64,000 nucleotides of DNA from Raillietiella orientalis (Eukaryota): NCBI GenBank assembly GCA_036172245.1, contig JAYWIR010000006.1:1054001-1118000 (forward strand). The letters run 5' to 3'. Both the position numbers and the translations under genes were made by a program. Shown here in pieces: positions 4,700 to 59,471 of this stretch (its first letter is position 1; every line of letters begins with the position of its first letter). The notes beneath the pieces are model-generated. The model was not told where the DNA came from, made no database searches, and saw nothing but the letters and a program-made list of their open reading frames with translations.

Positions 4700-4735
4700 G
4701 ACTCTAGAAAATTACACACTTTATTTAAATGATCA
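4700..4735 (-). promoter_or_regulatory. 36-nt intercistronic spacer: poly(A) signal plus unpaired 3' splice acceptor
   Basis: Minus strand reads TGA-tgatcattta-AATAAA-gtgtgtaattttcTAG-agtc-ATG; AATAAA at 4720-4725, acceptor AG at 4704-4705. Confidence 0.7.
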
Positions 4736-6720: not shown

Positions 6721-7365
6721 AGTGCATCGCGAATTCACGTTTTGTGTTTTCGATTATGAAAGCGATTGAAATCCTGTGATCTTGATCGGAGTAGGGAATC
6801 TTTTCGAAACTTTCCCAGAAAATTGGGAATGAAAGTAAACAAACGTCTTCTGCTGTGTATTGTGCTTGATTTCTCATTACCATCCCTTCAGAGCATGATG
6901 CGATGCATAACCCAATAATTGTTCTATCGTATTTGGTGAAAGAAGTGTGGAGAAATCGAGTTGTTTCAGAAACAAACTTCATTGTTACTTTAACTTAACA
7001 TACTTTCTCTTCTGTTATTTTTTATTTCTATAATAAAGTAACATATTTATGCCAGTTCCTTTACTTTTTGGCACATTTGTCAATTAAAACCATGAATGCA
7101 ATGCAGTACTAAAGTTCAAAAGAGACCAAGATTAGATTAATTTACCCTCAGTGCTTCACGTTGACATTGTGGATTCAGGGAACATTTTAGAGAAATAATT
7201 CTTCCGTAACCTTGCTGGATATCGGCACAAAAAAAAAATATATCTGTGTTGTTGAGCTTTTTTTTTTTTTTTTTTTCTTTGATTGTTCATTTCTTATTGA
7301 GTTACCTTGTGTGAATGTTTATTGGTTTTAATTAGTTTATGGAGATTATGCAATTTCTTTCAGCC

Positions 7366-8213: not shown

Positions 8214-10324
8214 TTTTGAAGCATTTCTGGAAAGCTTACTATAGTCAGAAATGGCACTATTGTATATTTTCGTGAAAATGGGTTATAGTATTTTTTTTTA
8301 CAAGCACATGGTCTTCAAAATTAATTTTGTCCAAGAAACAAGCCTCAAATGCTTGGAAAAACTATTTTTGTCTTTTCAATTCATATTGTGATCAGCACCT
8401 ATGTATTAGGATCTTCATGCAAATAAAAATTTGAAGTTATGATTAAAAATTAAAAATATAGTAATGACTCATATTGGCTAATAGTATGTTTGTGTGAAGT
8501 TGGCATTTTCAGAGGTTATAAAGCCATGAGTCAATCCTGTAGTACATCTGACAGTTTTAAATAGCTTGATCATAATTTCAAGTTGGATTTTTTCATGTTT
8601 TTGATATTTTTTGTTTTTAAATATTTACCATGTAAGATACCCTATGCAAGGCACATTGCATAAGGTATTGCAATTCATAATCACAAATAAAAAGAAAATA
8701 AAAGACCACAAAATTTTCTTAGCCAGCACTTTTCATTTCATGGGTATTCTTTGTGTTATTGACAAATACGACTGCTTTCATGAACACTGAGTATTTTCAA
8801 AATATGTGCTTATTAATAAGTGGATTAACAAGAATCAGTAATCACGGTAATCAAAATGTTCTAAGCAGAAGCTGATTCAACACAGAATTTTGCAAGAGCT
8901 AGGATTCACACAAAACAGCCTGTTTTGTTGTATGAACAATGAAAATGTAAAATTCCTATCAGTTTCTAATCACCAAACTTTCATTTATTTTTAGTCTCAT
9001 AACAAAAATAAAACATTCTAAGGAAATGCCAGATTTAGAGTGGCATAATTTCGATTCAAATCAAATTATGAGGGGGAAATTTCAGATTAGCACATTTAAA
9101 AAGCATACAATGAAGTATGCAAAATAAGTAAACAAATGCTACTATACTGGAGCTACATGAGTACACATAATGTGAGCAAAATAAATCAGCCATTGAAAAA
9201 TAAATTTCTTTACAAATTTGATGTATCTTAAATGTCCTTAAATATCTCGTGCATTAAATGAAGTAATTGAACGTTAATGACCACCTGCTGTGAGAGTACT
9301 GTGTAAAAGCACAGAGTAAAAACATTTTGATTGGCTGTTGAATGTAATTAAATGCTTCAATTCTAGCTTACCTTTGTCTGTGACCTCTGCATGTAAAAAA
9401 CAGCTCTAGCATTTATTTGAAATGTTGACTTTATTCACAATCTTATTTACAAAAAAGCAATTGCATCTGCTTTTACATTTTGTATATTTGCACATATCAT
9501 ACACATACACACTTCATGACAAAATACAAACTCAAATTGATATTTTCCGCCATAGTTCATGATAACAGTAAAAAAAACACTGATCTTTTCTGCAATTCAG
9601 CATATGAACAGAATTATTCCACTTTAAACTCACTTGTTATCACAGAAACAATCTGTGTTAAGAAATGGGAAAAGCTTTCATGATTCTCCAATATTTTCAC
9701 TACAAACATGATTTCTGTTACTTATGTGCATCACTGTGTTGTTAAAAAGCTCATTGGAAACTTGTTGCATAGCAGTAAAACAATGCTACTCCAACAAGTA
9801 ACTAAAATTTACATGCTGCTAAACTAAAATGGTAATTTATTCCAGTGATCGTGGAATTAACAAATCAATGATGTAAAAACAATTTCCACATACTAAACCT
9901 GCTTCCTCACCTGCAAATCAATAAGCAAACAATATTTTTAATATAACTGCTGTAAGGTACTTATGTAAAAATTTATTATTAAAGAAAATGGAACATGGAC
10001 AGTATATGGAATTACACAGCAGACTTCTTTTGTAAACATGGCATGCTGTTCATTTGGCACTCTTGTCTGGCATAAATTGCTAACAAAAGTATTGCAAGGA
10101 AAAAAATTCCAAAATTTTTGCACTGTCATGGAAAGAATGAGTGTTGTATCTCTGTCAAGCCTAAGGGTACACTATACAAGCAACCAGCATTGTGGGGAAT
10201 TTGATTTTGATGAGCAACACTTGTTGTGGATTCATGCATGCAATTACATTTCATATGCATGTAGTTGGACTTGCAGTCAAGTCATGTGTCTCGTTTACAG
10301 GAAACAATCCACCAAGTTTTTGTG

Positions 10325-18650: not shown

Positions 18651-19779
18651 AATGTGTCGTTCTTCTATTTATGATATGCATCCAACATCAAGGAAAATAT
18701 CGAAAAACCAATCATCAGTAAGCGAGATGATTTATTATTTTTCAATATTGGGGGGGGAGGCGGAGGGGGGGATCTTCCATCGGTGTCAACAGCATCATTT
18801 TAAATAATCTCTAGGCTTCTTACTCTGCTGTTTAAGCTTTGTAATAGATACAAACTATGCAGTATTAAAGAAGTGTTTTCTAAGCTGTGTTCAGATATTA
18901 TTCAGAAAGAGGAATGAACATGATAAACTATCCTTTTAAAAACGAACTTTGTGTAACACAAAGATTTTTGCAAGGATGCCAATTTCAGTGTTATGGAAAA
19001 ATGTACAGAAATGTCAGTTACAATCGGAATGAACAAGCTTATATCCTCCTTCAATTCACAGCGCTCAGCTGTTTAAGCTGAGTATTCGAGTATTTCGTAA
19101 AAGACAAGTAAGCAGAATCCACACTTGATGGGATGAGCTTGTCTGCATACCGAACTTGATTAAAAGAAAGAGGAACCAAAGGGAAAGTTAGTGTTGACAC
19201 TTGTTCTGATAATTTTAACAGAAATGCAAATGAGAAGTCTAAGAATGCAGGATCAAATAAAGAAACTTTCGTTCAAAAACTAAGATTTCACGGTTTACAC
19301 ATAATTGACACATACTCCAAGAAACATAAAATGAATATTCAGAGATATATAAGGTCTCACTGAAAGAATCATAAAAGAAAGAAATTCCGGAAAATGTGAA
19401 GGTGAGGAAGATGGATTTTTAAAAGTGAGGGCACAATAGAAAGGATGAAGAATTGCTAATTGATGAGCCGTCATCATTACATAATTATCTAATCTGATGT
19501 AAATCCAAGTTATATTCCACAATAAATCGTAAACAATTAGGTCTTGCTTGTTGGAGTTTTCATTTTAAAAATTTCGAGAAATAATGAAAAATTTACAATT
19601 TTATAATTTGGTAGTGCTGCTTTGCCGGTGTGCATGTTCCTGCTTGTATATAGTTTAAGCGAACCCGGGAACGTGTCTGTGTACTCCAGAATTGACTGAC
19701 ACGTACTGTAGCGTGCCATATAAAATATAATCTATCTTGTGCCGTAATTTTCCTTGGCTGCACTTGCAATATAGTTGAA

Positions 19780-21409
<1,630 letters not shown>

Positions 21410-21414
<5 letters not shown>

Positions 21415-21512
21415 AGAGATTGTGTGGGCTTGATGAATGTCTTTTTACTTTGTGGGTGGTGATTTCAATGTCTTAATGTTTTTTCATAATTGCAGACAAA
21501 TATGCCTAAGTT
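21410..21512 (+). promoter_or_regulatory. About 100-nt intercistronic spacer: ATTAAA, GT/T-rich tract, unpaired 3' splice acceptor
   Basis: ATTAAA overlaps the AHCY stop (21410-21415), followed by a GT/T-rich stretch, then ttttttcataattgCAG ending at 21495, with the kinase ATG at 21513. Confidence 0.6.
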
Positions 21513-23281
21513 ATGGAACAAGTGAATGCTGGTTGCCAACATATGCTTTTCACAGTGCTCAACCATGCTCTGTTGGATTTAGTGTGCTCCTATTGTGAAC
21601 GAGATACTTTCTTTCAGAATAAGCTTTATGAAGGTAAAAGAAAAAAAAAAAGATATTGCTGTCGATGTCACAGAACTTGATAGAAATGTGCTGCCAGCTA
21701 AAGCCTTTTGGACTTGGCCAGCTTTCCTCCAGGGCTGAATTGGCCAGACCTCCTTACACGAAAGCATTAAAGAACTTACTCTTATGGACACAGCAGGCAG
21801 TTCATGAAGTTTACCAGCAGTCATTAGTGCCATTTTCTGCCGGATCTTGTCCTTATACCAAAGACTGCTTGTCTTGCTTCCCTTCTCGCCTGCAGTCAGA
21901 ATTCCAGATTTTAGAGCAAATCGGAAAAGGAGGATTTGGTGTTGTGTACAGAGCACAACACCGATTAGATAATGTCCAGTATGCCCTCAAGGAAATTCAC
22001 TTCAGGTATTCCTAGATATAGTTCCCAGTGCAGCAATAGTTTGATTTAGTTGCTCAAATGGACTGCAAATGACGAAAATATTGAATGAGGTGAGGGCCAT
22101 GGCTGTGCTTAGTCATCCCAACATTGTGGCATATAAAAGTGCTTGGTTGGAGCATGCAGTAAGAGTATCAGCTAACATTACCAGTCACTTGCAAATTTCT
22201 CAACCTGGTGAAAATCCATGGACTACGTCAGTGCGGAATTCTGGGTGAGGGGCTTTTCTGTGTTGGTAACAGCAACAATTCCTGATCCATAGCAAGGAAT
22301 CTGATGAGGATTCCTATGTCATATTTCTCCACTCTGATAAAGATAATAATAATGCCCATAGTTGCCCATCATGTGGCTCTAAACATTGCCAATGTGAAAA
22401 CTGTTCTGTGGTTACTTGTTCAAAGCATCGGTCAATGCATATGCCATTTTCCTTTAAACTGTATTTACAAATGGAACTCTGTGGTATCTCCTTAGCTTTA
22501 TGGCTTAATACTCGAAACTTTGATCAGGGGTTGGTAGCACTGGATTATCAAACAAATACAAGACTCTTGCGAGAGATTCTTCAGGGCTTGCAATACATTC
22601 ATGAACATAATTTGGTGCATCGAGACATAAAGGTAGTGTAATTACTATTCTAGAGTGCCCCACCCAAACTGATATAGCCACATAATATATATTTCAACAA
22701 ACGCACAAATCAAGTGCAGATAGGTGATTTTGGTTTGGTGCATGCTGCTTGCTCAGAGCTTCTAGAGTCACAGCATGCACTAGCTATACAAGCATGTAGT
22801 GCAGGGATAGGAACGCTGCTCTATGCTGCTCCCGAGCAACTGTCTGGGCATCTCTGCTCCTCCAAGGTCAGTTGTTGATGAGCAACCTGATGCTGATCAT
22901 GATATATGTAGTGTGATATGTATAGCATTGGAATTGTTATTTTTGAACTATGGCAGCCATTCAGCACTGCAATGCAAAGAGAAGAACAAATACGACAGTT
23001 GCGAGCCGGTAGTTTGCCGTCAGAGTTTGTTGAGCTTAAACCTCAGCAGGTAAAAACTGAAGGAAATCTTTGCTAACTGACATTTGGTTAGGCAAACCTG
23101 ATCCATCAGCTAACTTGTCTACATCCTAATGAAAGGCCTTCAGCTGCTGAGACATTAGCCATCCTAGAAACACACCAGAATTGGACTTTGGTGCAACCTT
23201 TACTTAGAATTAATGAACGCTAAGTGTTCTTGTCAGATCATCAGCAAATCGGACCGTTTTCCTCCCAGAACTGTGCAATGA
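21513..23281 (+). CDS. EIF2AK1: eIF2-alpha kinase, HRI-like
   Basis: N-terminal helix region NHALLDLVCSYC..KLYEEMCCQL; kinase motifs SRLQSEFQILEQIGKGGFGVVY, YALKEI, HPNIVAYKSAWLE, a kinase insert, LYLQMELC, HRDIK|PHN, IGDFGL, GTLLYAAPEQ, CDMYSIG. Introns 21634-21683, 22006-22049, 22245-22292, 22633-22677 and others. Stop at 23279-23281 if the last intron is spliced, otherwise 23221-23223; AATAAA at 23447. Confidence 0.88.
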
Positions 23282-31433: not shown

Positions 31434-34400
31434 TTACAAGGTTGTCCTGGAGACGGCGTCGATGGTGGTGGGAGCAGCGGCTTCCGGCCTGCCGAGGAGG
31501 TGCATCCTGCTGGAGGGTGAAGGGAAGGGGACGGAGCGGAAGGCGGAGGCTTCCTTCCCAGCGCCGAAGGGCGAAAAAGAACACCCGGACGCGGCGACGG
31601 ACCTCAGAGGGCGACGCCGAGGCTTTCCCAGCGTGGAGGGCGGCATGCGGGCGGCCGCCCTACATCTTGAAGCAGCATCCCGCCGTCGTCGCATGCTGCC
31701 TCTGCGGAAGGTACTCTTCGCTGCAAGTAAAAGAACAACGCGGTTCCCCCGTTAGCGGCTCCGCGAGCAGCGCAGCAGCCTCTCAGCGTCCCCTGGCAGC
31801 TCCTCGGTGCGCAAATCCACGACGGAAGGGGGGGGGGGGAGAGGAGGGGAAGGGAAGTCGCTCGCCGCCGGCTGGGAAGCGGTGGCTCGGGCCGGCTAGC
31901 GCGAGCTCGGCTTTCCCGTGTCACAGATGCGGCGGAGCCGCCGAGGCCTCCGGCCAACCGCGAAGAGGCGCCCCGCCATTCTGAACGATGGAGTCGCGGA
32001 GACGCAGCTTTCCCCGCCTGACGGGTGCCGGATGCCGTCTGCGCGCGGCCTTTCGCCGGAGGCTATCGGGGAGGGGGAAAGGGGGGTCGCGTGAGGCGGC
32101 TGCCCGGCTTCGCGCGCGGAAGCACAGGACTTTTTTTTTTTCTTTCGCGCGCCTTTTCCTCCCCCCTCTCCCCCTCCCCTTCCTCTTCCTCCGAAGCGCG
32201 CAACGACGACAAAGCTCCCGAGTTCCTCCTGAGCGCGGCTTTCGGGATCGGAAGGAAGAGGCCGGAAGGGTCCGGACACACCTGGTCCTCAGCGTGACAA
32301 GCGTCTGGTCCTCGGTGATGCTGTCCGTTCCCTTGTGGCAGGAGGCCGTGTAGTGGTCGTGGTGGAGGCTCCTCTGCCTCCTGCCATGCGGCGTCGCCGC
32401 AGCCTCCCTCGAGAAGAAGACCATGCGGTTGCCGCTGCAATCCACGAGGGACACTTCCGCCACGGAGGAAGTGCTCTCCCGGGGATCGCTGATCCTGATC
32501 TCCCGCATTTCCCACTGCCCGCCGCCGCCGCCGCCGCCGCCCAACACGCTCTTCCGCGGGAGGTCCTTCGGGCTGCAAGGAGGACGCTTCCGGTTCCGTC
32601 ACCCCTGTCTCACCCCTTTGCTCACCATCCTTCGACACTGTCTCTCTTGGATGCAGGCCTGGAATCGTGGCGGCCTCTTTCCGCCCCGTGCCGGGAAGAA
32701 TCCCTGGAACTCATGGAGGTGAACTTACGGGAATAGCAGGGAGAGAGGAGGAGGGGGGAGGGTTTTTCATCTCGTCTCGGAGACTCGGGGATCCTCCTCC
32801 TCCTTCCTTTTGTCCCCTCCCTTTTGCACGGGGCAACCTCTGGCCTCAACCCCGCGCAGAAGGCAGCAAACGCGCGTCGGCGGGAGCTTCACGAACCTCC
32901 CGCTAGATGGGAGACAGGGCGCAGCACGACCTGATAGCTTCCCGTTGGACGATACCGGCCCACAACCCAAACCCCCCTCTCCCTTCAGGAGCCGTGAGAG
33001 CCCTCTTCCCTATCCCCACAACAACCAACCAACCAACCTCAAAGGGCTGCAGCAGCGTCTGGCGTCCGGGCCGGGCCGGCTGGCCGCAGCCGAGGACCTC
33101 CGGTAGCACGAGGACCTCCGGCAGCGGCGCTCCTCACCCTCCTCCTCCTCCTCCTCTTCCTCCTCTTCTCTGTGGTCACCGGAGCAGAGAGACGACGACC
33201 GGTAGCGCTCCTGCAAGAGAGGTCAGTGTGAGAGCGGGGAGGGAGGGGGAGGCTAGAGAGGGAGATGTCGAACGGACGTGAAAAGTGGCGGGGCAATCCC
33301 CGGACTCGAACTCCACCCTGGAGACCTGAAAACAAGGAAAGCATCGGGATCGTGTGGCTCTCGAACCACGCGCGCCCATCCGCGCATCCTCGGGGGGCCG
33401 ATGGAGCCCTCTCTCACCATGGCGACGTGTTTCTCTGCCTCGTTCCCCGAGATTATCTCCCGCGAGGCTCCCACCCATGCTCCGAGGCGGGTCGCATCCT
33501 ACCTACCCACCCCTGGCCGTCTGCCACGGCGACTCCGCGCCACTGGACGAAAGGGTCTTTCACCCTTTTCGTCTCCCCCTCGCGTGGCCGAGACCGGCTC
33601 CGAGGGATAGGAGAGAGAAGGGTGGGGGGCTGGTTCTTCGGATGGCAGCGCAACCGCAGCGCCAGAAGGAGGCGGCGACGGCGGCGGCGAGCGCAGTCAT
33701 AAGGAAGGCGGAAGGGGGAGAGCCTCGTGGAGCTCTCCTGGAACCGCTGCCATCCTCTCTTCCCTGCCCAAGGAGGCACCTGAAGGAGCGAAGGGAAAGG
33801 CACCTTCCCAAGGGCCGGGTGCCTTCTTCCACCCCCATCTGGAGCGGAAGGGGTGCCGGGTGCGGCTCTCTCGCGCACCTTCCCTGCCTCGATGCTCCCG
33901 ACGCCGGCCGAGAGCATTGGTACGCCCACGAGGGAGGAGGGTCACACGCACCTGGAACTCGCGGGCGAGGTCGCACAGCTCCCGGCGCAGCTCCTCGTTC
34001 TCCCGCCGCAGGGAGAAGTTGTCATCCTTGGCGCGCTCCATCTCGCGAATGGCGCTGTCTCGGTCCGCGGTCAGGTGCCTCACGGCGTTGTCGCGTTCCT
34101 TCAGCAGCCTTCTCAGCTCCTGCATCTGTGAAGAGGGAAACAGAACGGAGTCCCATCACACCCACGAGCATCCATCAGGCAGCCTCCCCCCCTTTCTGCT
34201 GCCCCCTTCCCTCTACCCCACCTCGTCCCGCCCTCGTAGCGACTTCGTGCGCAGGAGAAAAAAGGGAGACAGCCAGACTGCCAGCTGACCTTCCGCCGTG
34301 CGGCACAGATAGCGCCTTGGTGTTCCCGGCTCTTCGTCGCCGTAGGGGGGGGGGGGGGAGCGGCTAAGGCAGAGAGAGAGTTGGAACGAAGAAGCGAGAG

Positions 34401-37400
34401 GTCCGTCACGAATGGGAACGAAGGAGGAGGGTTGAATGAGCACGAGAGAATCTTCTGAATGCATCTGAACTCCTGGAGGCAGCGCCGCGAGTTTCAGGAA
34501 GGTCGGGAGGGAGCCGAGGTGAGTCCATGCAGAGGAAAGTAGGGCAAGGGAGAGAAAGGAGGAGAAGCAGGAGGGGGAGGAGGAAGAAAAGAGGAGAAAG
34601 AGGAAGGAGGAAGAGGAGGAAAGAAAAGGGAAGAAAGGTACCTGGTCCTCGAGACTGCGCTGGTGGGTCATGAAGCGCTGCACCTCCTGGTCCTGCAGCG
34701 CCACCTTCTCGCCGACCGACAGCAGCTCCTCCGTCTTGCTGCAGAGCTCCTTCTTCAACCGCTCCAGGTCCTCGTCCATGTTCTTCTGCAGAGACAGCAG
34801 ACTCTGGTTCTCCTGGGCCACCTTCCTGCAGTGGTTCCTCAGCTGCTCCAGAGCAGCCTCCTGGAAGCACGGGACGGGTGGGTGGGTGGAGGAACTGGCT
34901 GTGTCTGCGGATGGGTGCTACCAGGAGGGAGGTGGAAGTTCGGAAGGGTCCAGGAGGACGCAGGGGTGGGGGGGGGGGGAGAGGTCGTCGGGCGGCACCA
35001 TGGAGGCGGCTGTGGTGGGCGCACCCATCCCTCTCGCCCCATCTCCTACCTTGGTCGAGAGCTCCTCCACGCACCTCTGGGAGAGGGCCTTCTGCTCCTC
35101 CATCTGCTCTCGCAGCTGCCCGCACTGCAGATTGCTCTTCTCGAGCTTCGAGGCGAGCGTGTGGGCGTCCTGGACCAGCTGGTGGTGCTCTTCTCCCCGC
35201 TGGCTACGGGGGCGGCATGGACGCTCTCGTGCCACCCTTTCTCTCCCCCCGACCTGTTCTCCGCCGCCAGGAGGCGGTTCTCGGTCTTCGCCTGCTCCAG
35301 CATGACCTCGAGCTTGGAGATGCTCTGGCGGTGCCGGTTTACGTCGTTCTGCTTGTCCGTCAGGTCGATGAGGGCGTTCCTGGGGGCGGGAGGTGGGGAG
35401 AGAGGGGGCAGGGAGACCCACGTCCCCTCGTCTTGGATGAACGCGCCTTGAGGGTCGGCAGGAGGCAGCTGCGGCGACCGGTCCAGAGAAACCACTAGCA
35501 GGATGCTGCCGCCTCCCGGATTCATCCGTCCTTTCTCCCCTCACTCCCGCATCCTTCCCCGAGATCCCACGTGCAGGGGGGAAGCTCGGAGAGCGCACGG
35601 ACGCTGTTCTTGCCCATCCATCCTTCCGTCACTCTCGCTGAGACAGGATCGCCACCCCACTGCGGAACGCGCAGCCCGACCCTCCCCCCGGCGCAACAGG
35701 GGTCAACCTTACTGCAAGGATTGTTCCACTGCGGCCTTCGAGGACTCTACGCTGGTCAGCAGCGCGTCCCTCTGGGAGAGCATCCGGCGCAGGTCCTCCT
35801 TCTCATCCTGCTCCTGGCGCAGGCGCAGCTAGAAGAACGGAAGGCGGTTGACGGGTGAACGGGGTCGTCACGTAGTGAGGACGGGAACAGGGCGTGCCAT
35901 CCTCTCCACTCCCTCGCCCTGCCCGCGTACTGCGGAGAAGGGGAGGGGGAGGAGAAGGGGGCAGAAAAGGGGAGAGAAGGGGAGCGCCCTTTCCTCGTGG
36001 CTGTGAGAACGGAGAAGCTCTGCTGGGGACTCAGCTGAAATCTCCCTCAGGCAATGGGGGGCAATTCCACGATCTCCTCCCCCCTTCCCAGAGAAGTACA
36101 GTGGGTGGCAGACGGGCACCTCCCCCGGGCGTCTGCCTCTTCCTGGCCGCTCCTCGATCACGGCTTTCCCTTACTCCTCTCTGGAGAAGAGTTCCCAGCG
36201 GAGGAGGAGGAAGAGGAGGAGGAAGAGAATGATGATTATAAGAGGCAAAAGAGGGGTTCCTTTTACTTTACCCTCCCTCTCATCAAGTAACCCCACAAAC
36301 CTGCAGGCGGTTCCTCTTTTCGTTGCTTGACAACAGCTCCGTCTCCATGCTCTTGAGCGCGGACTCCAGCTCCACGATGCGGGCGGTCCTTTCGCGGACC
36401 TCTTTTCGGGACTCGCTCAGGAACCGCTCTACCCTGTTGCACAGCAACGTCTTCTCGTTGAGCCTCTGCGAGGCCTCTTTCATGGCCTGCTCCATGTCCC
36501 TAGAGACGATCCTGGGAAGGAAAGGGAGGCGATCCCGTCGACTGCGCCTCTCCTGGAGGGAGGGAGGCAGCCAGCGCGCTCCCTCCCACCTGACCCACGA
36601 GCCCGGGGGTACTCCCTGCAGATGCTAGAGGCCTCCCGGAATCTCTCAGGCCGGAGCGTCGCCGCCACCTCGCCGTTTCCCTCCCGAGAGAGATACGGCG
36701 ACGCTTCTAGAGTCGCACCGGGAAGGAGAAGGCGGAATCGCGCGCCCATTGCCCGCCATCCTCAACCCACCCCATTCTCTCCCTTCTCGCGGCCAAGTCT
36801 TCGTACAGGGAGGTCCTTTGTGCTCCCCCCTACTCTTGCACAGCTGTACCCCACTCTCTCACGACATCCAGCTTCTCCCCAGTCGCCAGCGGCAACCGCC
36901 GCCGTCAAGTAGCCTGCTCGAACGCGAGCACCACTCGCGGCGGCTGCCAGTGAGGGGGGGCACGGAGAGATTGGGTCCCACCACCAGCGCACCTCCTCCT
37001 CCTCCTCCTCCTCCTGGCTCCTCTTCTTCCCCGCCTTTGGGGCGTCGCGCGCACCCCGCGCGAACAAGGCCGTCCGTCCGTCCGTCTTCCGGCACGCCTC
37101 CCCCTCCCCCGCATCCCGGCATGGAAGGATACCTCTTGCACTCCAGCGCGTTCTTCTCCTCCAACAGCCTGCGCTGCGACTCCATCATCTGGGAGTGCAG
37201 GTCCTCCAGCTGAGCTTCCTGAGAGAGGATGAGTTCCTTCTGGTAGGTCAGCGTGGCATTCAGGGAGGCGTTCTCGGACCGCAGGAGCTCCAGCTGGGCG
37301 ACGGCCTTACCCAGCTGCGTGCCCTTGCCCGAGGAGGAGTGGCGCATCCTGTCGGACAGCGCCCCGCAGAGAAGTGAGTCCTTCCCTTCCTCCTCCTGCT

Positions 37401-37721
37401 CTTCCTCCTCCTCCGGCTTCAAGGGAGGTTTCCTGGCTTTCCCCGGCCTGCGCGCGAGCTGCCACTCCGGCTCAGGAGAGAACTCCACCACTCCGGCAGG
37501 CAGAGTGCCGACCTCCGAGCTCTACGGACCACAGGAAGGGGCGCATTTAGCGAAGGAAGGCGCTAGGGGCGGCCTCACGTTGTAAGGGCTGAAGTCGCTC
37601 TCCGAGATGAAAGGCACGGGCGACGAGCAAGCAGAGTTGGGGATGGAGTAGGTGGCGCTCACGGAGTACACGGAGACTGGGTCGCAGGACGACAGGCTGC
37701 TCACCTGGATGGCAGCGATCC
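31434..37721 (-). CDS. Unassigned multi-exon coiled-coil protein with a basic low-complexity tail (5' end not found)
   Basis: Chain of phase-compatible GT-AG exons with GC3-rich codons: ..LELLRSENASLNATLTYQKEL.., RIVSRDMEQAMKEASQRLNEK, LRLRQEQDEKEDL, NALIDLTDKQNDV, EAALEQLRNHCRKV, MQELRRLLKERDNAV. Last exon RMHLLGRPEAAAPTTIDAVSRTTL*, with AATAAA at 31429-31434. Confidence 0.7.
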
Positions 37722-42879: not shown

Positions 42880-43700
42880 GAATAACCGGGTCCTCCCCCC
42901 TCTGAAGTGGTAGGAGTCGGCACTGGAGGCTCCCATGCAACGCCTGCCGCTCTCGCTGGAACCGGGGGACTGTGAACCCCAACTGTTGCAGGTGCGGGGA
43001 ACGGGAATCCCAGCTCCCTCACCTGCTTGTAGGCTGTGTTGCCCTCCGGCCCCTGTGGTAGCCTTATGTAACGTGCGCACCAACGGAACGCTTCACGATT
43101 TTGCGTGTCGTCCTTGCGCAGGGGTCACGCCAATCTTCTCTGTATCGTTTCAATTTTAGTTTACGTAAAGACGAAGCGTGTACATATAATAAAATGAACG
43201 GGCAATCCCTTGGAGCACGGACGGACAATCTCGGGGACGCCTCTTCGTGTGCGACGCCTTTTCGCCTGGCGCATCCCCAGCAGCTCTTTGCTGCTGCCTA
43301 CGTGGGATTGTGGCGGCCTGGAGCCACTCGAGAGGAGGACGGCGTTGTGGGGACGTCATCTGCTTCTCTTTGCGCTTCCTGCGGACGGCTACAAAATGAT
43401 GGCCCTCTCTGGGGCATACTCCGATGGAACTTCCCAACATCCTTCCCAGGATGCCGGGAGGGCGTCCTCCAGCTCCCGGTGATCCCTTCCCCAACCCTCC
43501 CAATTTTTTGTATATATTGTTTTGCTTTATTTTTATTTTTGTTTGCCCCTCCTCCTCTGTTGCTGAGGAGAACCTCGCCGGCCTGCGTGCCGGTTACTCG
43601 GTAGGTTCCGAGTATTCTCGGACGATGTAGGGAGATGGCCCTACACATGTATGTTTATTTTCTATAATAAACGTCCCTGCGTGACCGGATGAGAAACCAA
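42880..43700 (+). mobile_element. Decayed L1/Tx1-like LINE 3' end (may extend upstream to about 40.9 kb)
   Basis: LPCNACRSRWNRGTVNPNCCRCGERESQLPHLLVGCVALRPLW (42930-43058) with a CCHC knuckle; cctacgtgggattgt..cctggagc is shared with the 27.8 kb copy; T-rich tail with AATAAA near 43666. Confidence 0.75.
43067..43227 (+). mobile_element. Candidate 161-bp solo LTR inserted in the LINE relic
   Basis: AT-richer insert absent from the homologous 27.8 kb copy; starts TGTAAC, ends GGACA, internal AATAAA; no clear target-site duplication. Confidence 0.45.
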
Positions 43701-45108: not shown

Positions 45109-47833
45109 TCATTCTCGCGGGGTTGCGTGGCTTTCCGGAACGGACGGGGGCCTCCCTGGTGCGGTGGGCGACCGGAGCTGCTCCCGGAAGGCGTTCAGGA
45201 GCGTCTCGGTCTCCGAAAGCCACCTGCGGCCGGAGACGATCCTCTCTCGGAGCTCCCCGGAGCGCATCGCTTCCAGCTGCGCGAGGCACGCGAGCGCCTC
45301 GGGGCACCGGTCGGGGAGGATGCCGACGGTCTGCTGACCGCTGACCTCAGCCCTCGGCATCCGGGCGGCAGCTTCAAGGGACGCCTCGGCCGCCCGCGCC
45401 TCCTCTTCTGCTTCCCGCCGCGCGCCTTCCTCCACCTCGGCCTCCTCCAGGATGTGCCGCAGCTTCTCCTCCCGGCGCAGCACCTGCAAAAGTGGGGGAC
45501 GGAAGAAGGGAAGGGGGCGGTACCGCCCGCCCACCTCGTCCCTCCTCCCCTTCTTCGCCGTTGCCTACCTCCTCGGCGGCGGCGGCCGCCCTCCTGCGCG
45601 CGTCCTCGCTCCTGCTCATTAGGAGCACCCTCTCCCTGTCCAGTTTTCCCAGCAAGCGCTGCGTCGCCCCCTCCCACCGCCTGCCGAGGGGGGAGCCGGG
45701 AGTACGCCGCCGCTCCCGGGGCACCGCAGGTCCCACCCCACCGAGGGCCGACAGGGCGCTCCGACGCGCCGGCGTGGGCGGCGGCCTGGAGGCTTTCTCG
45801 CCCGGCCCCCTCTGGAGCTCCCGCCGCCGGCGCTCCAGGGCCGCTGACGCGGCCACCAGCTGCTCCCGGGCAATCACTGCTCGCTTCTCCAGGAGCTCCT
45901 TGTAGTCCAGGGCGTCCTTCAGCTGTAGAGGGAATGGAGAGATCATGGTAGGGTAAGGATGGTCAGATATTCTTCCAGTGCGGGGAAGTGACGGGACGTG
46001 CGTGGGGGGAGGGAGGGGGGAAGTGGCAGTCTCCCGTAGGAACGCGCGGACGATGAGGCGCGGTGAGCGGGGGTGTTCGGAAGCTTGCGGAGAGGTAACC
46101 GCGGCGCGAGGCGACACCGGTTTGCCCGGAATGGCACGTGGTCCTTGCCGCGCAGAGTGAAAGGGCGAACGGGGGTGTTCAAAAGGAAGAGGGGCAGGAA
46201 AGGTGCCAGAGGCTCACAAGGGTGCACGCGGGGGACCGCGAAAGACTCTCCCCTCCCACCTCACTCCCCCTCGCACTTACCAGGATGCGCTGGTCTTCCA
46301 AGACGGCCACCAGGTGGGTCTGCTCGTCCTTCACGTTGGAGATGGCGCAGACGAGGTCGTTCGCCTGCTGACCCAGAAGGACTTCTTGCCGGCTCCTCGC
46401 TCCCCTGTCGGCTTCCGCCTGGAACTTCAGCTCAACCTGCTCCCGGATGAGCTGCAGGGCGTGCTCCTGGCCGTCCCGGATGGCGAGCGCGCGGGCACGC
46501 GCGGCCTCGGCCAGGGCCCTGCGCGTCGCTCGCGCGTCGCTCAGGTTGTTCCGCAGCTCCTGGGTGAGGGGCAGCCACGCCTCGCGGTCGCGCTCCAGGG
46601 ACGACAGCTGCACACCCAGCTGCCGGAGGAGGTCGTCAAGTAGGCGCACCTGACCGCGGAGGATGAGCGTGAGGGAAGGCAACTGACCGGCCCCGGGGCG
46701 ACGACCCCTCGCCGGAAGCCCCGCGAGCCTCCAAGCCGCCCCCGAGGCGAGCGATGAAAGCGCGCGAAGGGGGCGGTGCCTGGCGAGGGACCGCCTCGTG
46801 CCTCGAAGAGCGGGTGGGGAGGGGCGCTTACCCTCTCCCTGCCTCGGTCGGCCTGGACCCGCAACTTCCTCTCCTTCAGCAGCCGCTGGTCCTCCTCCAC
46901 ACCCACCAGCATCCGGCGCATCCCGAATCGGCCGACGTCCTCGGCAGCCGACCGCAGGGCGCGGACCTCTTCGGCGGCGCGGCAGAGGTCCTGCCGCGCC
47001 TCCCGGGCCCTCCCCAGGAGCGACGCCCGCTGCCTGCTCAGCTCGCCTTCCCGGTCACCGATCCTCCGGCAGAGTTTCTTCACCGCCAACAGGCGGCGCC
47101 GGGCTTTGAGGTTCGCCTGTCTCCTCCGGGACGCTTCCCCCTCCACCCGGGACAGCTCTGACGACGCCTCCTGCCTCCTTTCCCGCAGTTCCGCCAGCTG
47201 CGGAAGAAGGAAGGGAGGGTGGGAAAGGGAGTTCGAGGGGCGCCCCCTTCCCACAATCCTCCCCCGTTTTCGGGATCTCATCAGCAGCTCCGCTCGAGGC
47301 GAAAACCCCGGAAGACATCGGAGAGGGTGGGTCCGGGAAGCGGTTGCACTCCTCCCCACTTCCCCCCCATCCTTTTCCCGCCCGGAAGCATCGCCGGAGG
47401 AAAGAAGAAGCAGAGCTGGTCGTAAGGGAGAGGAAGGAGGCACGGGAGAAGCGCTCCGACTGACCTCTTCCTGGACGCACTTCCTCCTAGAGACCAGGGC
47501 GCCCTTCGACATCGCCACGTCCTCGGCCTGCTGTCGCAGCCTCTCGAGGGCGCGACCTAGGGAGAACTCCTCCTCCCGGCAGCGCCTGTGCCGCTCGAAG
47601 GCCGCCTCCAGGAACTCCTCCGCCCGCCGGAGGTCCCCCGCCGAGGTCAGGTCCCCCTCGTTCCTCTCCTCCTGGACACTCGCCCTCGTCTCGTCGAACT
47701 CCTGGGTCGCGCGGAGGGCGCTCCGCGAGCGAGCGCTCTCATGCCGCAGTCTGGCAACCTCTTCCCGCACGGCCACGATCCTCTCTTCCAGGAAATGTAG
47801 TCTTCCCTCGAGAGATTCCTGTTCCAGGAGGCA
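45109..47833 (-). CDS. Unassigned multi-exon Arg/Glu-rich coiled-coil protein (ends uncertain)
   Basis: Phase-0 exon chain CLLEQESLEGRLHFLEERI..VQEE | LAELRERRQEASSEL..GRER | VRLLDDLLRQLG..DQRIL | LKDALDYKELLEKR..AAEE | VLRREEKLRHILEE, with canonical donors (gtcagt, gtaagc, gtaagt, gtaggc). Confidence 0.7.
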
Positions 47834-49149
47834 CTGCGGGGGAGAAATGAGCAGTTAGTGCGCGGCGCAGGGACGCACTTCGGAAGGAATGGGGACTGGA
47901 AAAGGAGGAGGAGGAAGAGGAAAGGAGGGAGAAGAAGGGAGGGAAGGAGGGAGGGAAGAGAGGGAGAAAAAGAGGAAGAAGAAAAGACTCTTCGTACAGA
48001 ATCCGTGAGTCCCAGGAGCCTGCCGGTCGCAGAGACTCCAGAAGCCCACGTGCATCTTGGAGCTGGAAAAGGAGGATGGAAAAACGAAGCAGCCACATTC
48101 GAGGGAGACTGCAGGAGTAGGAAGTGGCCTTCAGGAGAATTCCGGAGCGAGACGATAACCCAATCCGTGCCCCCTCCCGGTCACCCGCATCCAGGTCGAC
48201 TTGCTGGCAGAAGTGGGGCGACGGGCCCTGACCGTGGCTCTTGAGGAAGATGACCGCCAGTCGGGTCATCGCTTCACCATCTGCTGCCGCCCGACCAGTT
48301 GAGGTGCATCTCACCTCATCGTCTATTGCCGATCCTTTTTTCTCCTCCCCCTGTTCGGATCCTCGGTTTCCTGGCGGGCGGACGACCTCGCTCCGAGCAC
48401 CCTGGAAGCTTTTCTGGCTGGTCAGGATGTTAAAGTTGCCTGAGGCGTCCCTCACTAAGAGAAGGGGGGAAAGGAGGAGGGAGGGACGAAATGGAACGAC
48501 TGTCTGGAACCGCGCTCCTTCCCCTCTTTCCCCAGCCGCATTTTCCATGGGGAGTTCCGCGGGAGGGGGGTGGGCATCCAATCGATTCAACTGGTTCGTG
48601 GAGTCCGCCTGAGGCCCGTCGCGCGTGCGCGAACAACGCGCACCGGCGCCACCCCAGGCAGCTCGCTGCAACTTTGAAGACGCTCCGTGAGAGGTGCTTT
48701 TGTGCACGAGCAGCCGAGCCGGGCAGCCCAATTGAGGATTTTGCTCGCTGCAGCTTCTGTTCTCCTCCGGGAGTGCAGATCCCTCGCTCGGTGCGCCGAG
48801 AGCACGACGCAGTTGGAGAGAATCCGCTAGGCGACGGATGCATGCCTCCGGGAGCACCTCCCCCGCCTGCCACTACCCTCGCTTCCCGGATTCGACTGGA
48901 TCTGCGACAGGACCCCGCTCCGAGGTGTGACGTAACGCGCGGTTCACTGTCGGTGGGACGCGCTGCACCGCTCGCTCCGCCCGGGGCGGAGCGCACTTCA
49001 CTGGGATCCCTCTTCCACGCGGGGGGCATGCGCAGTCGGAGCTGCACAGCTCACGCACAAATCGAATGTTATGAGGGATGAGGGGGGGGGGGGCGAGAAG
49101 GGAAGGGAGAGAGGCCCATTTGAAGGGAGGGGGGAAGGGGATCGTACTC

Positions 49150-52745: not shown

Positions 52746-55700
52746 TCAATTCGAGCGCTTCCTTTCGTACTTTTTGACGAACTTTTTCCACTGATCGTGG
52801 TTCAAGTGGTCCAACTGGGCCATGTGGGAGATGGCTTTCAGATACTTCGAAAGGTACACCAATTCTTCGTCTGTGTGCCTGGAGAAATGCGCTTTGCGGA
52901 AAGCCTTTATTTTCAAGCCGTTCTGAGGGTTCATAAGGAAGTTGTGCCTCACGTCGTCGAACATGATGGTGTTGTGGGCTCCGTACATGGGGAGCAAACC
53001 CCATATCACCCCCAAAGGTTTCACCTGAAAAACAGCAATGATTTCAGTTATCCAGCGAACACCTCAGTCAGCATTTTCCCCAAGCGCACCGAGTTCGGGC
53101 AAATTTCCTTTGGAGGTATTCCCAACACAGTGATGGAAAAGAGAGAACGAATACTTCACCAGAATTGAAAAACAAAATTCAGCGAAAAAAACAAATTCAC
53201 CAAAAAGGCAAGACGGAGATGGCATTGGGTTTGAGTGGCCCGCTGAAAACATTTCATTTATAGATATCGACCTCCATTCAACAAGATACAGATTTCATCT
53301 GTTTTGATCTCTCCCAAGCCGTCCACCCACTACCGCTGGTCTCGCAACTGCACTCCAAAGGAAGCACACCGTACGGAACACTGTTCGAGAGAATAGGAAA
53401 CCAAACAGAACAAAAAAGTGAACACGTGAAGTTCTTTGGACGCGTTGGCTTAGGTGGGCGGAAATGTGCGATGCCATCCTCGGAATGGTTTACGGCTCTT
53501 CGACATTCCCTGAATGCAACTTTGGTGACATCCCTTGCCGACGGGAACGAGCACTTGCTGCCCGTCTTCGGGGCTTACCCATGACCCAGTATTATACCCA
53601 ACAAAATCACTGTACTGCATTCCAATCGCCTATGTCCGAGTGTTCGTCTTGCTTTGTAAACTAAACTTTCAAGTACCATGCAACAAGTCGAGAGGACATG
53701 TATATGGGCGTACGTACGTGCGGCGTTTCCGCTACAAACTGCGTGCGTAGAAGTGCAGTCTTGGATCTCTGCACCCCAACAGAAATGCCGAGGTCTATGG
53801 TGACGGCGGTAGGAAAAAAAAAAAAAAAAATCGCGCACCATCCAAAAGAAATCGGCGGCATTCTGAACTCTGGTGTTTCCAGAATAAGTACCTCGCGTGA
53901 TTTTAGGAGTGTTTCTTTCCTTTTTCCTCTTTGGAAAGGTAACTCGTGCCGATTTCCGGCAGAACTGAAACATCGATGAGCGAAATACCGAAAAAGATGT
54001 CGAAACCGAATCGCGATCCCCGTCGACTGTGGGATCAAAGATGAGTTGAGGCTTTAGTCGAATCTGCCTGCATCATTTTCTGATAAACTATTCCAAGCGT
54101 ATGCGTAAATTCTAAACAAAAGTTTTCTCCGGATCCTTCTTGAAACTTTAAATCAACGGCAGATGCTCGGTTGAGACTATCGCTCAGATTTACTGGGGCG
54201 ATCCGTTTGGATGGTCACAAAACCGAGTTTTCGAACCCCTGTTCGCAAAAAAAAAAAAAAAAAAAGAAAAAGAAAAAGAAAAGAAAAAGAAAAACAAGGA
54301 AAAAGGACCTCACTCCGAGAACGACACGGATTCACACATTGGAGAGCACAGAGAAGCACTTTTGGGCAGACACCAGCAACTGGCATTCATACAAGATCCT
54401 CGAGCAATAGGTGCACATTAACAACCATAGAACAATCAACGTGATCACCATCATCCATGATCACAGGAAAAAAAAAAAAAAAAATACATGGCACGGTTAC
54501 GGACTTGCCATGTGATATAAACCCATGACATGACACCACGAGGGAGCACTCGCTAGTAAACGGATCCATGAAGCTGCATCATTTGCTGGGGAAAATCTGT
54601 GACTGCCGCTTTGAAAATTGTTTATTCGAAGGCCTTTGTAAGCTGTAATCTTACTACAACCTCCAAAACACGTGTAAAGCATTTCGAAACATATGAAATC
54701 ATTAAAGAACAAGAAATATTTTGACCACCGGAATCCAGAGAAGGGAGAATTCCCCAAAATTTATATTAACTGCGTACAAATTATGAAACTGCTTCCTCAC
54801 ATCGAATAAACTGCGGCTTTATTACATTTTAAACGCAGCCTGATTAGCTCTTCAAGCAATACTGAGCAATTAGTCTGAGTGGTTATTTTTTGTAAGCGTC
54901 ACTTACTTTCTAATAAATTTTAGGAGGGCTAATGCAAAACATAAGGAGGGTTTGGTGAATTTTCAAATAACACCTCCCTCGCTGACTTTTAGACAATACA
55001 AAGAATCAAGCACTGTCTGAAGAAACACGAGTTTTACGCTAATCTGCTTGAAATCACATTCTTCCCTGCAAGGACGACTGATAGCCACGTTGCAGCCGTC
55101 GGTTTGCAGATGTTTTTATCTCCCGCATGGACAACATACTGTATGGGCAATCCAAGTGAAACGGGCCAGGAATCAGATGTGCTACTTGACCTATGTTTTT
55201 AACTGGGAAACATTAGTTTCCAGAAGAAAAGCTAATTCAGGGCAACAACAACAACATTGCAAGCTTGTAGTTTCCGCAGAAAAGGAATTTTTTTATATTA
55301 ATTTTTTATAAATTTTTTTCAGGGTAACTCTCAAATCATTACGCATCCAAATCTGCAGAAACCAAGCAGAGATTAAACATGATAAATTTCGATTCCACTA
55401 TTGCCAACATATGCAAATTTAATCATTTTATAGCACGTAAAATACGATAATGACGTGCCCTCTTGGCTATGTGCAACTCAAGCAAACACTGTACGCATAA
55501 TCAAAAACAGAAATTGTGGGTCAAGCTGCCATTATCCTTTCACACTTGCAAATAACCTTTTGCACTTTTAACTCCCCCATTAGTGTGAAATTAAAATGAT
55601 TCAATTAATTTCAAACGAACTTGCAGTTAATAAGATCTAAAATACATCCGCAAAAGTAAACTAAATATTTTGCTTACATCCACTACTCCTTCACCAGTAT

Positions 55701-58700
55701 TAACACTTATCATTGCTTCTTCGTCCATACAGCCAAGCAGTGAATAATGAAGATTGCCAGTTATGCCCAATACCTTTAATTTGTTGTCTATCCATTTCAT
55801 ACTTGTTGCAGACCAGATCATGATGTCATAATCCTCAATGGAGTAAAAACATAAATAAAAAGTTGAAATTAAGAAATAGAAAATAACGTTTATAATGGAA
55901 TGAAATTGAAAAAAAACCTCGTAAGCTAATGTTAGAAACTCGTGAAGATATGGTCTCATCAATTCTGCTCCATTTTCTCCAACAGAATGATGGTCAAATA
56001 AAGTGTAATCGATATCTAGAACTAATAACTTCTTTCCTGTTCTAGGACTACTTAGAAATTTTATTTGGTATTTTTTTATTCTATTGGCTATCTAAAACAA
56101 ACAACAAAAACTAAAATAGTATCTGAAATATTAAAGTAATACCTAAGACAGATAATTACATTTTTACAGATACTTTATTTCTTTCATAATTACACACATA
56201 TGCTACAAAAAAGTCACTGAATTGCGCTGAATTAAAATCTCAAGTCTTATTTTGAAGAAACAAAGCTAAAACAAATACTTCTAGCCACTTAATCAAACTG
56301 ATGGAATGTTTTTCTAACCTTTGTCAAATATTCAACTCGACACTGTAATGGAGTTTCTTCCCAAACAAAATCATTTATCACATTATTATCACATGATGAT
56401 GCAGCTTGCACCTGTTCTATATCTTTTTCCTGAGATCCGATGACCACCAATTTCCCATCTGGAAATAAAGTCAATTATTTTCAAAGCTATCCCAGATTTG
56501 TTTCTTTAGATGTTAAACACAATTTTTTAAAAAATACGAAAATTCCAGACCGTCATTATTTATGTAGATGGAGAAAAACTTCCTGAATGATACCCATTTA
56601 AGTTTGCAACCTTTATCATTCAAGTTGTTCCACCATCAACACCCTATTTTGTCTATGAGTTCATTGTTTTTTTTTTTTTTTCTTAAAAAAAAAGAACTGT
56701 TCCATTATTTTATAGTATTTTCAGTTATCACAAGTATCAAGTTTTTCCTATTTCTGGGTCATAAAAAACTAAATTAAATATTTATGCATTTTGTGAACAC
56801 ATCTTATATATATTTTCCGCAGTTTGTGAGTTTTTCGATTACTCAAAGCTTTATAGTTACAAATTATGCTGGAAAAAAAACAAATCCTTGTGCCTTATGT
56901 CCTTATTTTTACTGTCTTACTAATGCTATTTTTAGTGTTTTACACTTATTGTATAAAAATGTGACTTGGTGCATTGATAATCTCTTCAGAAGATTTATGA
57001 CACTTACTCTTTTATTTATAAAATCGTTATTTCAATGAATCATAAAGTAAATTACACTGACTTACTGCTTAACAGCTGCCTTTGCTGTCCCCCAAAAACA
57101 CATGCAAAAAATCCATTAGAAGAGACAGAAATCAAGAGACAAAACAACCAAATTTTTGGTTCTCATCTTCTAAGTTTTATAAATTCCATTGGGAACAGTT
57201 TTGGGGAAAGCACTAGCAAGAACAATTCTATAATCGGAAGGATTATGAAATTGTTAAAGTATTTCAAAAGCAATGAAAACCAGTTTTAAAAAAACTTTAA
57301 ATGACTTGAGCAACTGTGACAAAAACAGTTACAAAGGACTCCATAAAGTAAATATCTAGAGATTGAAAACAAACTGAAAACATGCTAATAAACTAAAAAT
57401 CTGTAATTAAAAAAAAACTGGCTCTATTATCAAAGAACAATCAATCAAGCATCCCATGAAGATGATATTTATCAAATTTTCATAAACCCAAAATCAAAAC
57501 CAGAATGAACTAAGTACTTTGTGTAGCCATAGCATAGTAAGTGAAAAATGCCACTGAACTAAAAGAATAAATTAATCTGAAGAAAAAAAATCGAATCTTT
57601 GAAATAAACATTGATAACAGATGGCACTTTGAATGCATGTATACAAGCTTTCACTTTTAATACAAGCTTTCTTTCAAAGCAAAATCATAATTCAACATCA
57701 CTTGTTTAGATTACCATGTTGTGCTCTACCCTCGATCTTAAATTGAAATTTATCAATTTACTTTTTTTTTCCAGGAGTTTATTCATTCTTTCATCATTGA
57801 CCATGAATGTTTCACATGTGCGGACAAATAAAATATGAAATGTTAAACAGAAATGCTGGAAGACTTTGCATCATGCTTAAAAAGTCTCCCTTGCATGAAA
57901 AACAGAATGCTAAATTGTCTCAGCTAAAAGGTTAGAAAATCACTGTATTTAATAGTTGCAAATTACAAGATACTTGAAAAAAAAACAAAAAAAGGACAAC
58001 TTTTAGAGTCCAAAGTTTTTCTTCTTTCTGAATACAAATTCAAAAAGAAACTTTTCTTGGTGAACAAACTGAAACTTTCACTATGATCAGCGACTAAAGA
58101 CATACTGATCAATTACTAAATAACTGAATAATTTTGTGGCTGATTTTCGAAATTTGCCGAAAGTTCAAATTGAAAATTGCAAACATAATAATAATAATCG
58201 GATTACACTTTGTGTTTCGATAATTGAAAATGTGGTGCTTTTCGAAACTGTCTTTATATCCAAACCTGAAACATTCTGCTTTGATGGATTTTCCAAGTCT
58301 TAGAATGACTTGAAATCTTACTAAAAAAAAAGTTTGCACCAGACCAACCATGAAAACAATTATACCATGCTTGGTTTTCAAAGATGCTGTTACCAGCAAT
58401 TTTTTCAAAAAATGCACCCGTTATGAGTATCAATGGAACAAACACGAGAAAATAAAATCACATTTTCATATAAAAAATGAATTACATAATTACCAATAAG
58501 ATTACAATTTTATTTACGCACAAAAAAACTGAAACCGAAATTGAAAACCTTTCGAAAAGTTCTATGCTGAATTCTGATAACAATGCAAACAAGAGAATCA
58601 AAATACACTCTGGGATTTGATTTATTATTTAAAATGAGAGAATAACAACAGAACTTCACTTCGACTTTGGAACTTTAGAAAATTATGGAATTATGAAAAT

Positions 58701-59471
58701 AGGAATAAAAAACCAGCACCTATTAAGACTGCATACAATGCAAACACCAATACGTGACTGAAACATTAACACAATTTCTTTGGGATAAAAATCTCAAATA
58801 GGGAATGCAACATATAAAACGGGAACTTGGATTCTTTTTATTAATTCTATGGAAGATGAATTTGACTGTTTTTATTAGGGTTCAGGACACTTTAACATAG
58901 TTAAAAAAAGAAGAAAAAAGGCTTCTCTAGCTTTTAGAAAATAGCTTTTGTACAATTCTGAAGCAAAATTTTGTGGCCATGAAAAATTTGCAAGTACCAG
59001 TTTCAAAGATTGTGCAAAATATTAGGATTATATATGTGTTATTATTAATGTAAGCAACTTTGCAAACAACCAAATTATTGTTCAATTGGAACACCATTTT
59101 CAAAGTTCTCTTACTGAAGGCATTCATATAAGCACCAAGATAACAATCATTAAGGTTGACTCAACAACATGTGTGTAAACACATGATGCTCAAATTCTTA
59201 CCCTTTGGAAGTCTGAATTCACTTAAAGGCAGGGAGTCCGTTATTAGTGTTCCTATGATACAACGAGAACACTTACATTATTAGAAAAAAACACACACAC
59301 ACAACCTGCAGTTTTCGGCTTTAGATTTATTAATTTCTGTCTGTGAGGCATCACTTGAATTTGTTTGGAAATTTCTTCTTTAAGGTCTTCGAGAGTGTTG
59401 CATGCTGTTAAATTCTTTAACTCAAACTCAACATTTCCCCACTTTCCTTTAAGAAGCAGAACTTCCTCCAT
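52746..59471 (-). CDS. UBLCP1: Ubiquitin-like domain-containing CTD phosphatase 1 (6 coding exons)
   Basis: UBL domain MEEVLLLKGKWGN..VMPHRQKLINLK; HAD motif PRTGKKLLVLDIDYTLFDH, LMRPYLHEFL, DYDIMIWSATSMKWI, VKPLGVIW, TIMFDDVRHNFLMNPQNGLKI. Two introns of about 2.7 kb. Confidence 0.95.

Follow-up and report, generated by a model that had tools for sequence, protein, structure and literature searches.

The window analysed here, a stretch of 64,000 nt (64 kb), holds a gene for S-adenosylhomocysteine hydrolase (AHCY) and, 98 nt past its stop codon on the same strand, a gene for an HRI-type kinase, and the question raised by this locus is how the downstream gene obtains its mRNA. The reading favoured below, with a probability of roughly 0.55, is that AHCY and HRI form an operon resolved by spliced-leader trans-splicing; it is drawn from sequence, and the broader proposition that the two genes share transcription by some route is likely. 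The locus looks like an operon because the gap is short, because there is no sign of a second promoter and because worm-like signals for cutting the transcript are present. The features of the locus are as follows.

19500..19779, plus strand: CpG-rich stretch 5' of AHCY, likely promoter of the whole unit (CpG o/e, TATA-like box)
19733..19741, plus strand: TATCTTGTG, a TAYYTTGTG copy 42 nt 5' of the AG at 19774, before the AHCY ATG
19780..21414, plus strand: AHCY, the upstream gene (open spliced frame, Pfam)
21410..21415, plus strand: ATTAAA over the AHCY stop, a candidate poly(A) signal by sequence, putatively used
21415..21512, plus strand: spacer of 98 nt, 34% GC, with no CpG and no stable fold (sequence, folding)
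21446..21454, plus strand: TACTTTGTG, a Ur-type TAYYTT hexamer plus GTG, starting 50 nt before acceptor 21495
21479..21495, plus strand: T-rich tract and CAG, a candidate splice acceptor with no good donor nearby (sequence, matrix)
21502..21525, plus strand: 7-codon upstream ORF, out of frame with the kinase and overlapping its ATG (sequence)
21513..23223, plus strand: HRI / EIF2AK1-type kinase, the downstream gene (open spliced frame, K/HRD/DFG/APE motifs)

The AHCY gene model is intact, with eight exons, 433 aa and seven GT-AG introns of 41-61 nt, and two of its exons match the Pfam families AdoHcyase_NAD (2.5e-38) and AdoHcyase (5.8e-17). The kinase model is likewise intact, with seven exons (the last of them uncertain), 478 aa and six GT-AG introns, and it keeps all of the catalytic motifs K, HRD, DFG and APE. 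Among 150 fetched proteins, EIF2AK1-named entries are the best full-length matches at 30-35% identity, and tardigrade and nematode proteins match best (30-35%) in this set, whose selection used only the beginning of the kinase domain. The N-terminal helical region, residues 5-82, matches Hri2/EIF2AK1 entries weakly (E 3e-4 to 7e-4 within the 150-protein set); since the first ~80 residues match the N-terminal region of these entries, ATG 21513 yields a plausible complete protein. The best PDB matches of the kinase are GCN2 and EIF2AK1. None of 126 candidates passed in a homologue search with kinase exon 2, an atlas search with that exon stayed below the recognition threshold and was uninformative, and none of 391 pattern matches was confirmed in a metagenome scan with the N-terminal region. 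By its eIF2-alpha kinase domain with insert and its N-terminal region the protein is an HRI / EIF2AK1-type kinase, for which haem binding is at most a prediction.

The coordinates of the junction in the preliminary description all hold: the AHCY TAA at 21412-21414, ATTAAA at 21410-21415, the AG ending at 21495, a TAA in the kinase frame at 21507-21509 and the kinase ATG at 21513, as does the distance of 98 nt from the AHCY stop to the kinase ATG between two intact genes. The next A[AT]TAAA lies 352 nt past the AHCY stop, within the kinase coding region, and the chance of finding such a hexamer in a given 25-nt window is 5.4%. From ATTAAA to acceptor 21495 is 80 nt, which, if cleavage is assumed to occur 15-30 nt past the hexamer, leaves a gap of ~50-65 nt between the poly(A) site and the acceptor, within the 50-200 nt range and under the C. 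elegans median. The spacer contains five ATGs (21433, 21437, 21468, 21476 and 21502), all out of frame or opening short frames. Those at 21468 and 21476 fall between the motif and the acceptor, and splicing would remove both. The ATG at 21502, which the preliminary description does not mention, is the first ATG 3' of acceptor 21495, is out of the kinase frame and opens the upstream ORF 21502-21525, which stays in the kinase mRNA if the acceptor is used. It can be speculated that a 7-codon upstream ORF overlapping the start of an eIF2-alpha kinase could damp translation or confer stress responsiveness.

Acceptor 21495 was scored with a splice matrix built from the 39 introns of six gene models in the window. 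At 3.6 bits it outscores 11 of the 39 true acceptors, and 12.7% of the 2599 background AGs score at least 4 bits. A rule for T-richness (YAG with at least 10 T in 17 nt), set after the site had been seen, is passed by 29 of the 2599 background AGs and places 21495 within the top 1.1%; a T-rich YAG lies within 20 nt of 22 of 1048 ATGs. Measured with this matrix, derived from the window, 21495 is a credible acceptor of average quality, not an exceptional one. Cis donors in its vicinity are poor: those at 21456, 21452 and 21439 would give introns of 40, 44 and 57 nt and score at or below all but one of the 39 true donors, and the donor at 21459 scores better, above three of the 39 true donors, but would give an intron of 37 nt, below the shortest intron modelled. 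Stronger donors are found at a distance, 5' of AHCY, at 19402 (7.9 bits) and 19499 (6.3 bits). Only 3 of the 39 acceptors have the sequence TTTCAG.

The surroundings of the locus bear on whether such spacing is general. Six genes were modelled in the AT-rich first 23 kb of the window, namely QARS, SLC35C1, a mu-class GST, HDAC1, AHCY and HRI, and their 39 introns have a median length of 46 nt, with 33 of them between 38 and 54 nt. Both pairs of same-strand neighbours in this cluster are tight, at 36 nt (SLC35C1-QARS) and 98 nt (AHCY-HRI), and the three opposite-strand pairs lie 1205, 2111 and 6612 nt apart. Tight spacing restricted to same-strand neighbours, over five pairs only, is what would be expected if operons, and not general compaction, were at work. 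The second junction is the following.

4700..4735, minus strand: second tight junction, SLC35C1 stop to QARS ATG, 36 nt (spacing, AATAAA, AG 4704)

Here AATAAA precedes AG 4704 by 16 nt, and this AG is weak at 0.7 bits. The poly(A) site and the acceptor would almost coincide, as in Ciona operons.

Gene bodies in the window are CpG-poor (o/e 0.30-0.40) and most flanks stand at ~0.9-1.1, a profile that suggests gene-body methylation. Upstream of AHCY, CpG o/e is 1.0-1.1 across 19500-19900 (200-nt bins) and falls to 0.16 by 20100, and a TATA-like TATAAAA lies at 19719. Within 300 nt of the ATG, CpG o/e is 0.90 for AHCY, 0.90 for SLC35C1 and 1.0 for HDAC1, all three of them first genes, and around the ATGs of HRI and QARS it is 0.22 and 0.32. 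The HRI start has five CpGs against the 20 predicted at an o/e of 0.9 (P 7e-5, with reference values taken from the same data). Depletion is unbroken over 20100-23100, from AHCY through the kinase, with no 200-nt bin recovering, and the kinase ATG has no match to TATA, Inr or DRE within 400 nt. Downstream genes are not alone in having low CpG at the start codon: the first gene GST has an o/e of 0.36, because its CpG-rich stretch sits 400-1000 nt upstream, the value for UBLCP1 is 0.56, and the interval 8400-10300 is CpG-poor with no gene found there. Nor would a promoter lying inside a methylated gene have to be rich in CpG.

The hexamer in the spacer motif TACTTTGTG is TACTTT and starts exactly at -50 from the acceptor; the motif also falls within the GU/U-rich tract expected 3' of a poly(A) site. 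A TAYYTT hexamer occurs at -50, -42 and -61 of the 5' AGs of HRI, AHCY and GST, respectively, and in all three it is followed by GTG. The copy at GST is the third.

7303..7311, plus strand: TACCTTGTG, third TAYYTTGTG copy, 61 nt before AG 7363 and 5' of the mu-class GST ATG

The window contains four TAYYTTGTG copies, three of which precede the orphan acceptors of GST, AHCY and HRI; the AG at 19774 is the orphan acceptor before the AHCY ATG. The count itself is unremarkable, as 11 of 100 shuffles reach four. At a comparable distance the hexamer precedes 3 of the 39 cis acceptors and 7-9% of background YAGs, and between -60 and -40 it precedes 165 of 2650 background AGs. The probability of TAYYTT at three or more of five genes is 0.003-0.006, or ~1e-5 when the shared next three bases are counted, for a distance window that was fixed after the data were seen. 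The hexamer is absent at QARS, HDAC1 and UBLCP1 (-65 to -38), the last of these examined after motif discovery, and SLC35C1 has no clear 5' acceptor; counted as three of six or three of seven genes, the probability becomes 0.007-0.02. Run on random sets without a literature prior, motif discovery reaches seven identical columns in 30 cases out of 300, and TAYYTTG is also found 43-65 nt before three of the six cis acceptors of introns longer than 60 nt.

Two of the copies, those of AHCY and GST, sit at first genes. The AHCY copy lies 14 nt past the TATA-like box and so could belong to promoter DNA. At GST, the AG lies 2 nt before the ATG and three ATGs fall between the motif and AG 7363; upstream ATGs in this position, three at GST and two at HRI, favour the segment being spliced off. 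The GST segment 7303-7365 (plus strand) may be an outron or a long 5' UTR intron. HDAC1, on the minus strand, has motif-like sites at window positions 12277 and about 13226: its 1016-nt first intron carries TACTTTGCG, which precedes a pyrimidine-rich AG by 60 nt, and a near-match, TCACTTGTG, lies ~57 nt before the AG adjoining the ATG. A leader RNA was sought in the 64-kb window by three routes. Rfam returned none, its only match being U6-like; a scan for a donor with an Sm-site pattern gave no match; and a scan for complements of the motif gave seven matches, four of which are the motif copies, with no convincing leader gene among those examined.

Taken together, these signals are consistent with the following mechanism. 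AHCY and the kinase would be transcribed as one unit from the CpG-rich region 5' of AHCY, where the promoter is presumed to lie. Cleavage and polyadenylation of the pre-mRNA soon after ATTAAA would yield an AHCY mRNA whose 3' UTR is very short, and the uncapped downstream piece would be rescued by trans-splicing of a putative leader to the AG at 21495. The U-rich TACTTTGTG, 50 nt upstream, may recruit the leader RNA in the manner of the nematode Ur element, and the weak signal together with the overlapping ATG 21502 may hold kinase output well under that of AHCY. The nematode Ur element pairs with the splice donor of the leader RNA; if the motif here pairs in the same way, the leader should end near CACAAG, followed by GUA. 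The motif and this prediction of the leader end are the contribution of the AHCY-HRI junction itself. In the proposal of polycistronic transcription with trans-splicing, the shared transcription is the part that gains support, from the missing CpG footprint at the kinase, the weak cis donors and the Ur-type hexamer; the trans-splicing part carries the probability given at the outset.

Shared transcription could also be achieved with no leader RNA. A non-coding first exon 5' of AHCY might be cis-spliced either to AG 19774 or over AHCY to 21495, placing AHCY inside a 5' UTR intron of the kinase. This arrangement would account for the missing second promoter and for the orphan acceptors at both genes, could draw on the good donors at 19402 and 19499, and has counterparts among the 130 Drosophila genes that FlyBase flags as having a common promoter and 5' non-coding exons (PMC4528330). 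It is nonetheless judged unlikely, as the two donors sit on the upstream edge of the CpG-rich stretch or beyond it (o/e 0.42 and 0.74 in bins 19300 and 19400), the splice would have to skip eight exons amid introns that are mostly 38-54 nt long (33 of 39), and the arrangement predicts no Ur-type hexamer at -50. A dicistronic mRNA of the Drosophila type, of which 159 pairs are annotated in that genus (PMC4528330), would arise by occasional read-through of the weak ATTAAA, with the kinase translated by reinitiation or internal entry and AG 21495 unused. The non-canonical poly(A) hexamer and the CpG profile fit such a transcript, but the five out-of-frame or short upstream ATGs in the spacer do not, and the T-rich YAG and the motif at first genes such as GST are left unexplained, so that it is considered quite improbable.

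Alternatively, the kinase may be driven by a promoter of its own, situated in the spacer or in the last exons of AHCY, with TAYYTTGTG serving as a core-promoter element, or with 21452-21495 as a 44-nt 5' UTR intron, and with the close spacing reflecting compaction. The GT at 21452 would indeed give an intron close to the median of 46 nt, the AHCY copy of the motif follows a TATA-like box, and a compact annelid genome has been described without operons or trans-splicing (PMC7854359), which shows that compaction alone does not imply operons. Against this, neither CpG recovery nor a core-promoter match is seen within 400 nt of the kinase ATG, donor 21452 beats only one of 39 true donors, an unspliced 5' UTR would hold three upstream ATGs and the opposite-strand neighbours are not compact; a separate promoter is accordingly held to be an improbable explanation. 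The in-frame TAA rules out an AHCY-kinase fusion only for splicing through 21495; a weak splice from donor 21407 to acceptor 21510 would leave one open frame running from AHCY into the start of the kinase. Such a fusion is very improbable: the donor scores -2.0, under all 39 true donors, the acceptor scores -1.4, and the intron of 104 nt would bypass the better AG at 21495. In a metagenome scan with AHCY exon 7, a kinase match was found in none of the best 80 of 590 AHCY loci, none of which belongs to a close relative, the best full-length identity among these 80 being ~75%.

The leader-resolved operon reading was compared with systems in which operons have been described. Like nematode SL2-type operons of C. 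elegans and Trichinella spiralis, the locus has unrelated housekeeping genes arranged head to tail (PMC7668243, bioRxiv 10.1101/642082), and, as in nematode operons, where TAYYTT lies ~50 nt before trans-splice sites, a poly(A) signal and a U-rich tract are followed by an acceptor just 5' of the next ATG, with TAYYTT ~50 nt ahead (PMC7668243). Unlike in nematodes, the gap between poly(A) site and acceptor is likely to be 50-65 nt, compared with a median of 129 nt in C. elegans operons and 74-213 nt in T. spiralis control operons (PMC7668243, bioRxiv 10.1101/642082). The locus further differs from nematode operons in that no stem-loop precedes the motif, the motif also occurs at first genes and only 3 of 39 acceptors read TTTCAG; neither a leader nor an SL2 stem-loop 3 was found in the window, and the host is probably not a nematode. 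In nematode SL2-type operons, a stem-loop lies just before the Ur hexamer. Directly 5' of the hexamer here such a stem-loop is absent, the spacer folding more weakly than its shuffles (z +1.0 to +1.7), and on the same grounds the idea that the spacer holds a structured RNA element was discarded. The "SL2 geometry" attributed to the spacer is overstated: the poly(A)-acceptor gap is likely to be 50-65 nt, the neighbouring junction has hardly any gap, and an operon-specific leader would be putative.

Very short spacers are a feature of the single-leader operons of Ciona intestinalis, Oikopleura dioica and the chaetognath Paraspadella gotoi, with tunicate medians of 1 and ~31 bp and a criterion of <250 bp in the chaetognath (PMC7986045, PMC12460157). 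In these systems one leader set serves first and downstream genes alike, which fits the orphan acceptors of GST and AHCY and the 36-nt SLC35C1-QARS spacer (PMC7986045, PMC12460157). The present locus differs in belonging to another phylum and in having a leader that is only putative; in addition, CpG-poor gene bodies are kept here, whereas P. gotoi is described as having retargeted methylation away from gene bodies (PMC12460157, PMC7986045). By this comparison, AHCY-HRI would operate as tunicate and chaetognath single-leader operons do, with a nematode-like Ur hexamer in addition, and its membership of that group is putative.

The identity of the host was approached through protein matches. 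The best 120 of 2521 matches to an exon of GlnRS (QARS) are mostly arthropod proteins at 70-75% identity, with vertebrates at ~70% and no named nematode among them, and a clade I nematode host was dropped from consideration for this last reason. A quick GlnRS tree of the window model and 48 of the 120 fetched proteins, hand-picked for spread and with no nematode, tunicate or flatworm rows, places the window protein on a long branch within no supported group. The mu class of the GST is confirmed by a PDB match, which does not confirm a lineage, and a search with a GST exon gave two matches at 59%. An arthropod-type genome, as supposed in the preliminary description, is plausible from these matches, and the host may be a slow-evolving non-arthropod.

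Within arthropods, spliced leaders are known in calanoid and siphonostomatoid copepods and in the amphipod Parhyale, so that trans-splicing is present in crustaceans, and the word "operon" occurs zero times in the main text of either report (PMC4664967, PMC5111886). Drosophila provides a different likeness, as its dicistronic and shared-promoter pairs also place adjacent arthropod genes in one transcription unit (PMC4528330); these pairs need no leader RNA, cover 2.5% of genes and supply the main rivals at this locus. Leader-resolved operons have been described in nematodes, tunicates and chaetognaths (PMC7668243, PMC7986045, PMC12460157), and a literature search of partial coverage, with few subscription papers, found no report of one in an arthropod. 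It is tentatively suggested, as a possibility that goes well beyond this one locus, that the host is an arthropod, probably a crustacean, with many leader-resolved operons and an independently evolved Ur-like TAYYTTGTG 40-60 nt before its trans-splice sites. If true, leader-resolved operons would have arisen independently once again, in a group with known leaders but no known operons, and an arthropod case would probe the proposal that trans-splicing, where it exists, is followed by operons (PMC3342872). A convergent Ur-like signal, if true, would show which component of the nematode mechanism the spliceosome imposes. Such loci are also relevant to annotation because gene pairs of this kind get fused.

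Several further observations concern the remainder of the window. The interval 8400-10300, between the convergent GST and HDAC1 genes, is CpG-poor with no convincing ORF and may represent long 3' UTRs or an unrecognised transcript. From 23500 to 52000, base composition shifts abruptly from 30-41% GC to mostly 55-72% GC over ~28 kb; CpG is undepleted in this block and introns are longer, giving an isochore-like mosaic beside the AT-rich housekeeping cluster. Ribosomal DNA was rejected as an identity for the block, as Rfam found no rRNA match in the window. Exons of one or two long coiled-coil proteins lie within it on the minus strand (~33900-37700 and 45300-47850), with weak Pfam matches only, on one of the scanned stretches. 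A full-length U6 match of 81.7 bits at 43077-43183 (minus strand) appears diverged and has no terminal T run, and may be a variant or a pseudogene. Beyond the block, a gene at ~52750-59471 on the minus strand, which we take to be UBLCP1-like from its sequence likeness, encodes an NIF phosphatase domain (Pfam) and has kilobase introns and an ATG at 59471; a T-rich AG lies at 59518, and the sequence is CpG-rich from 59600 to 60400.
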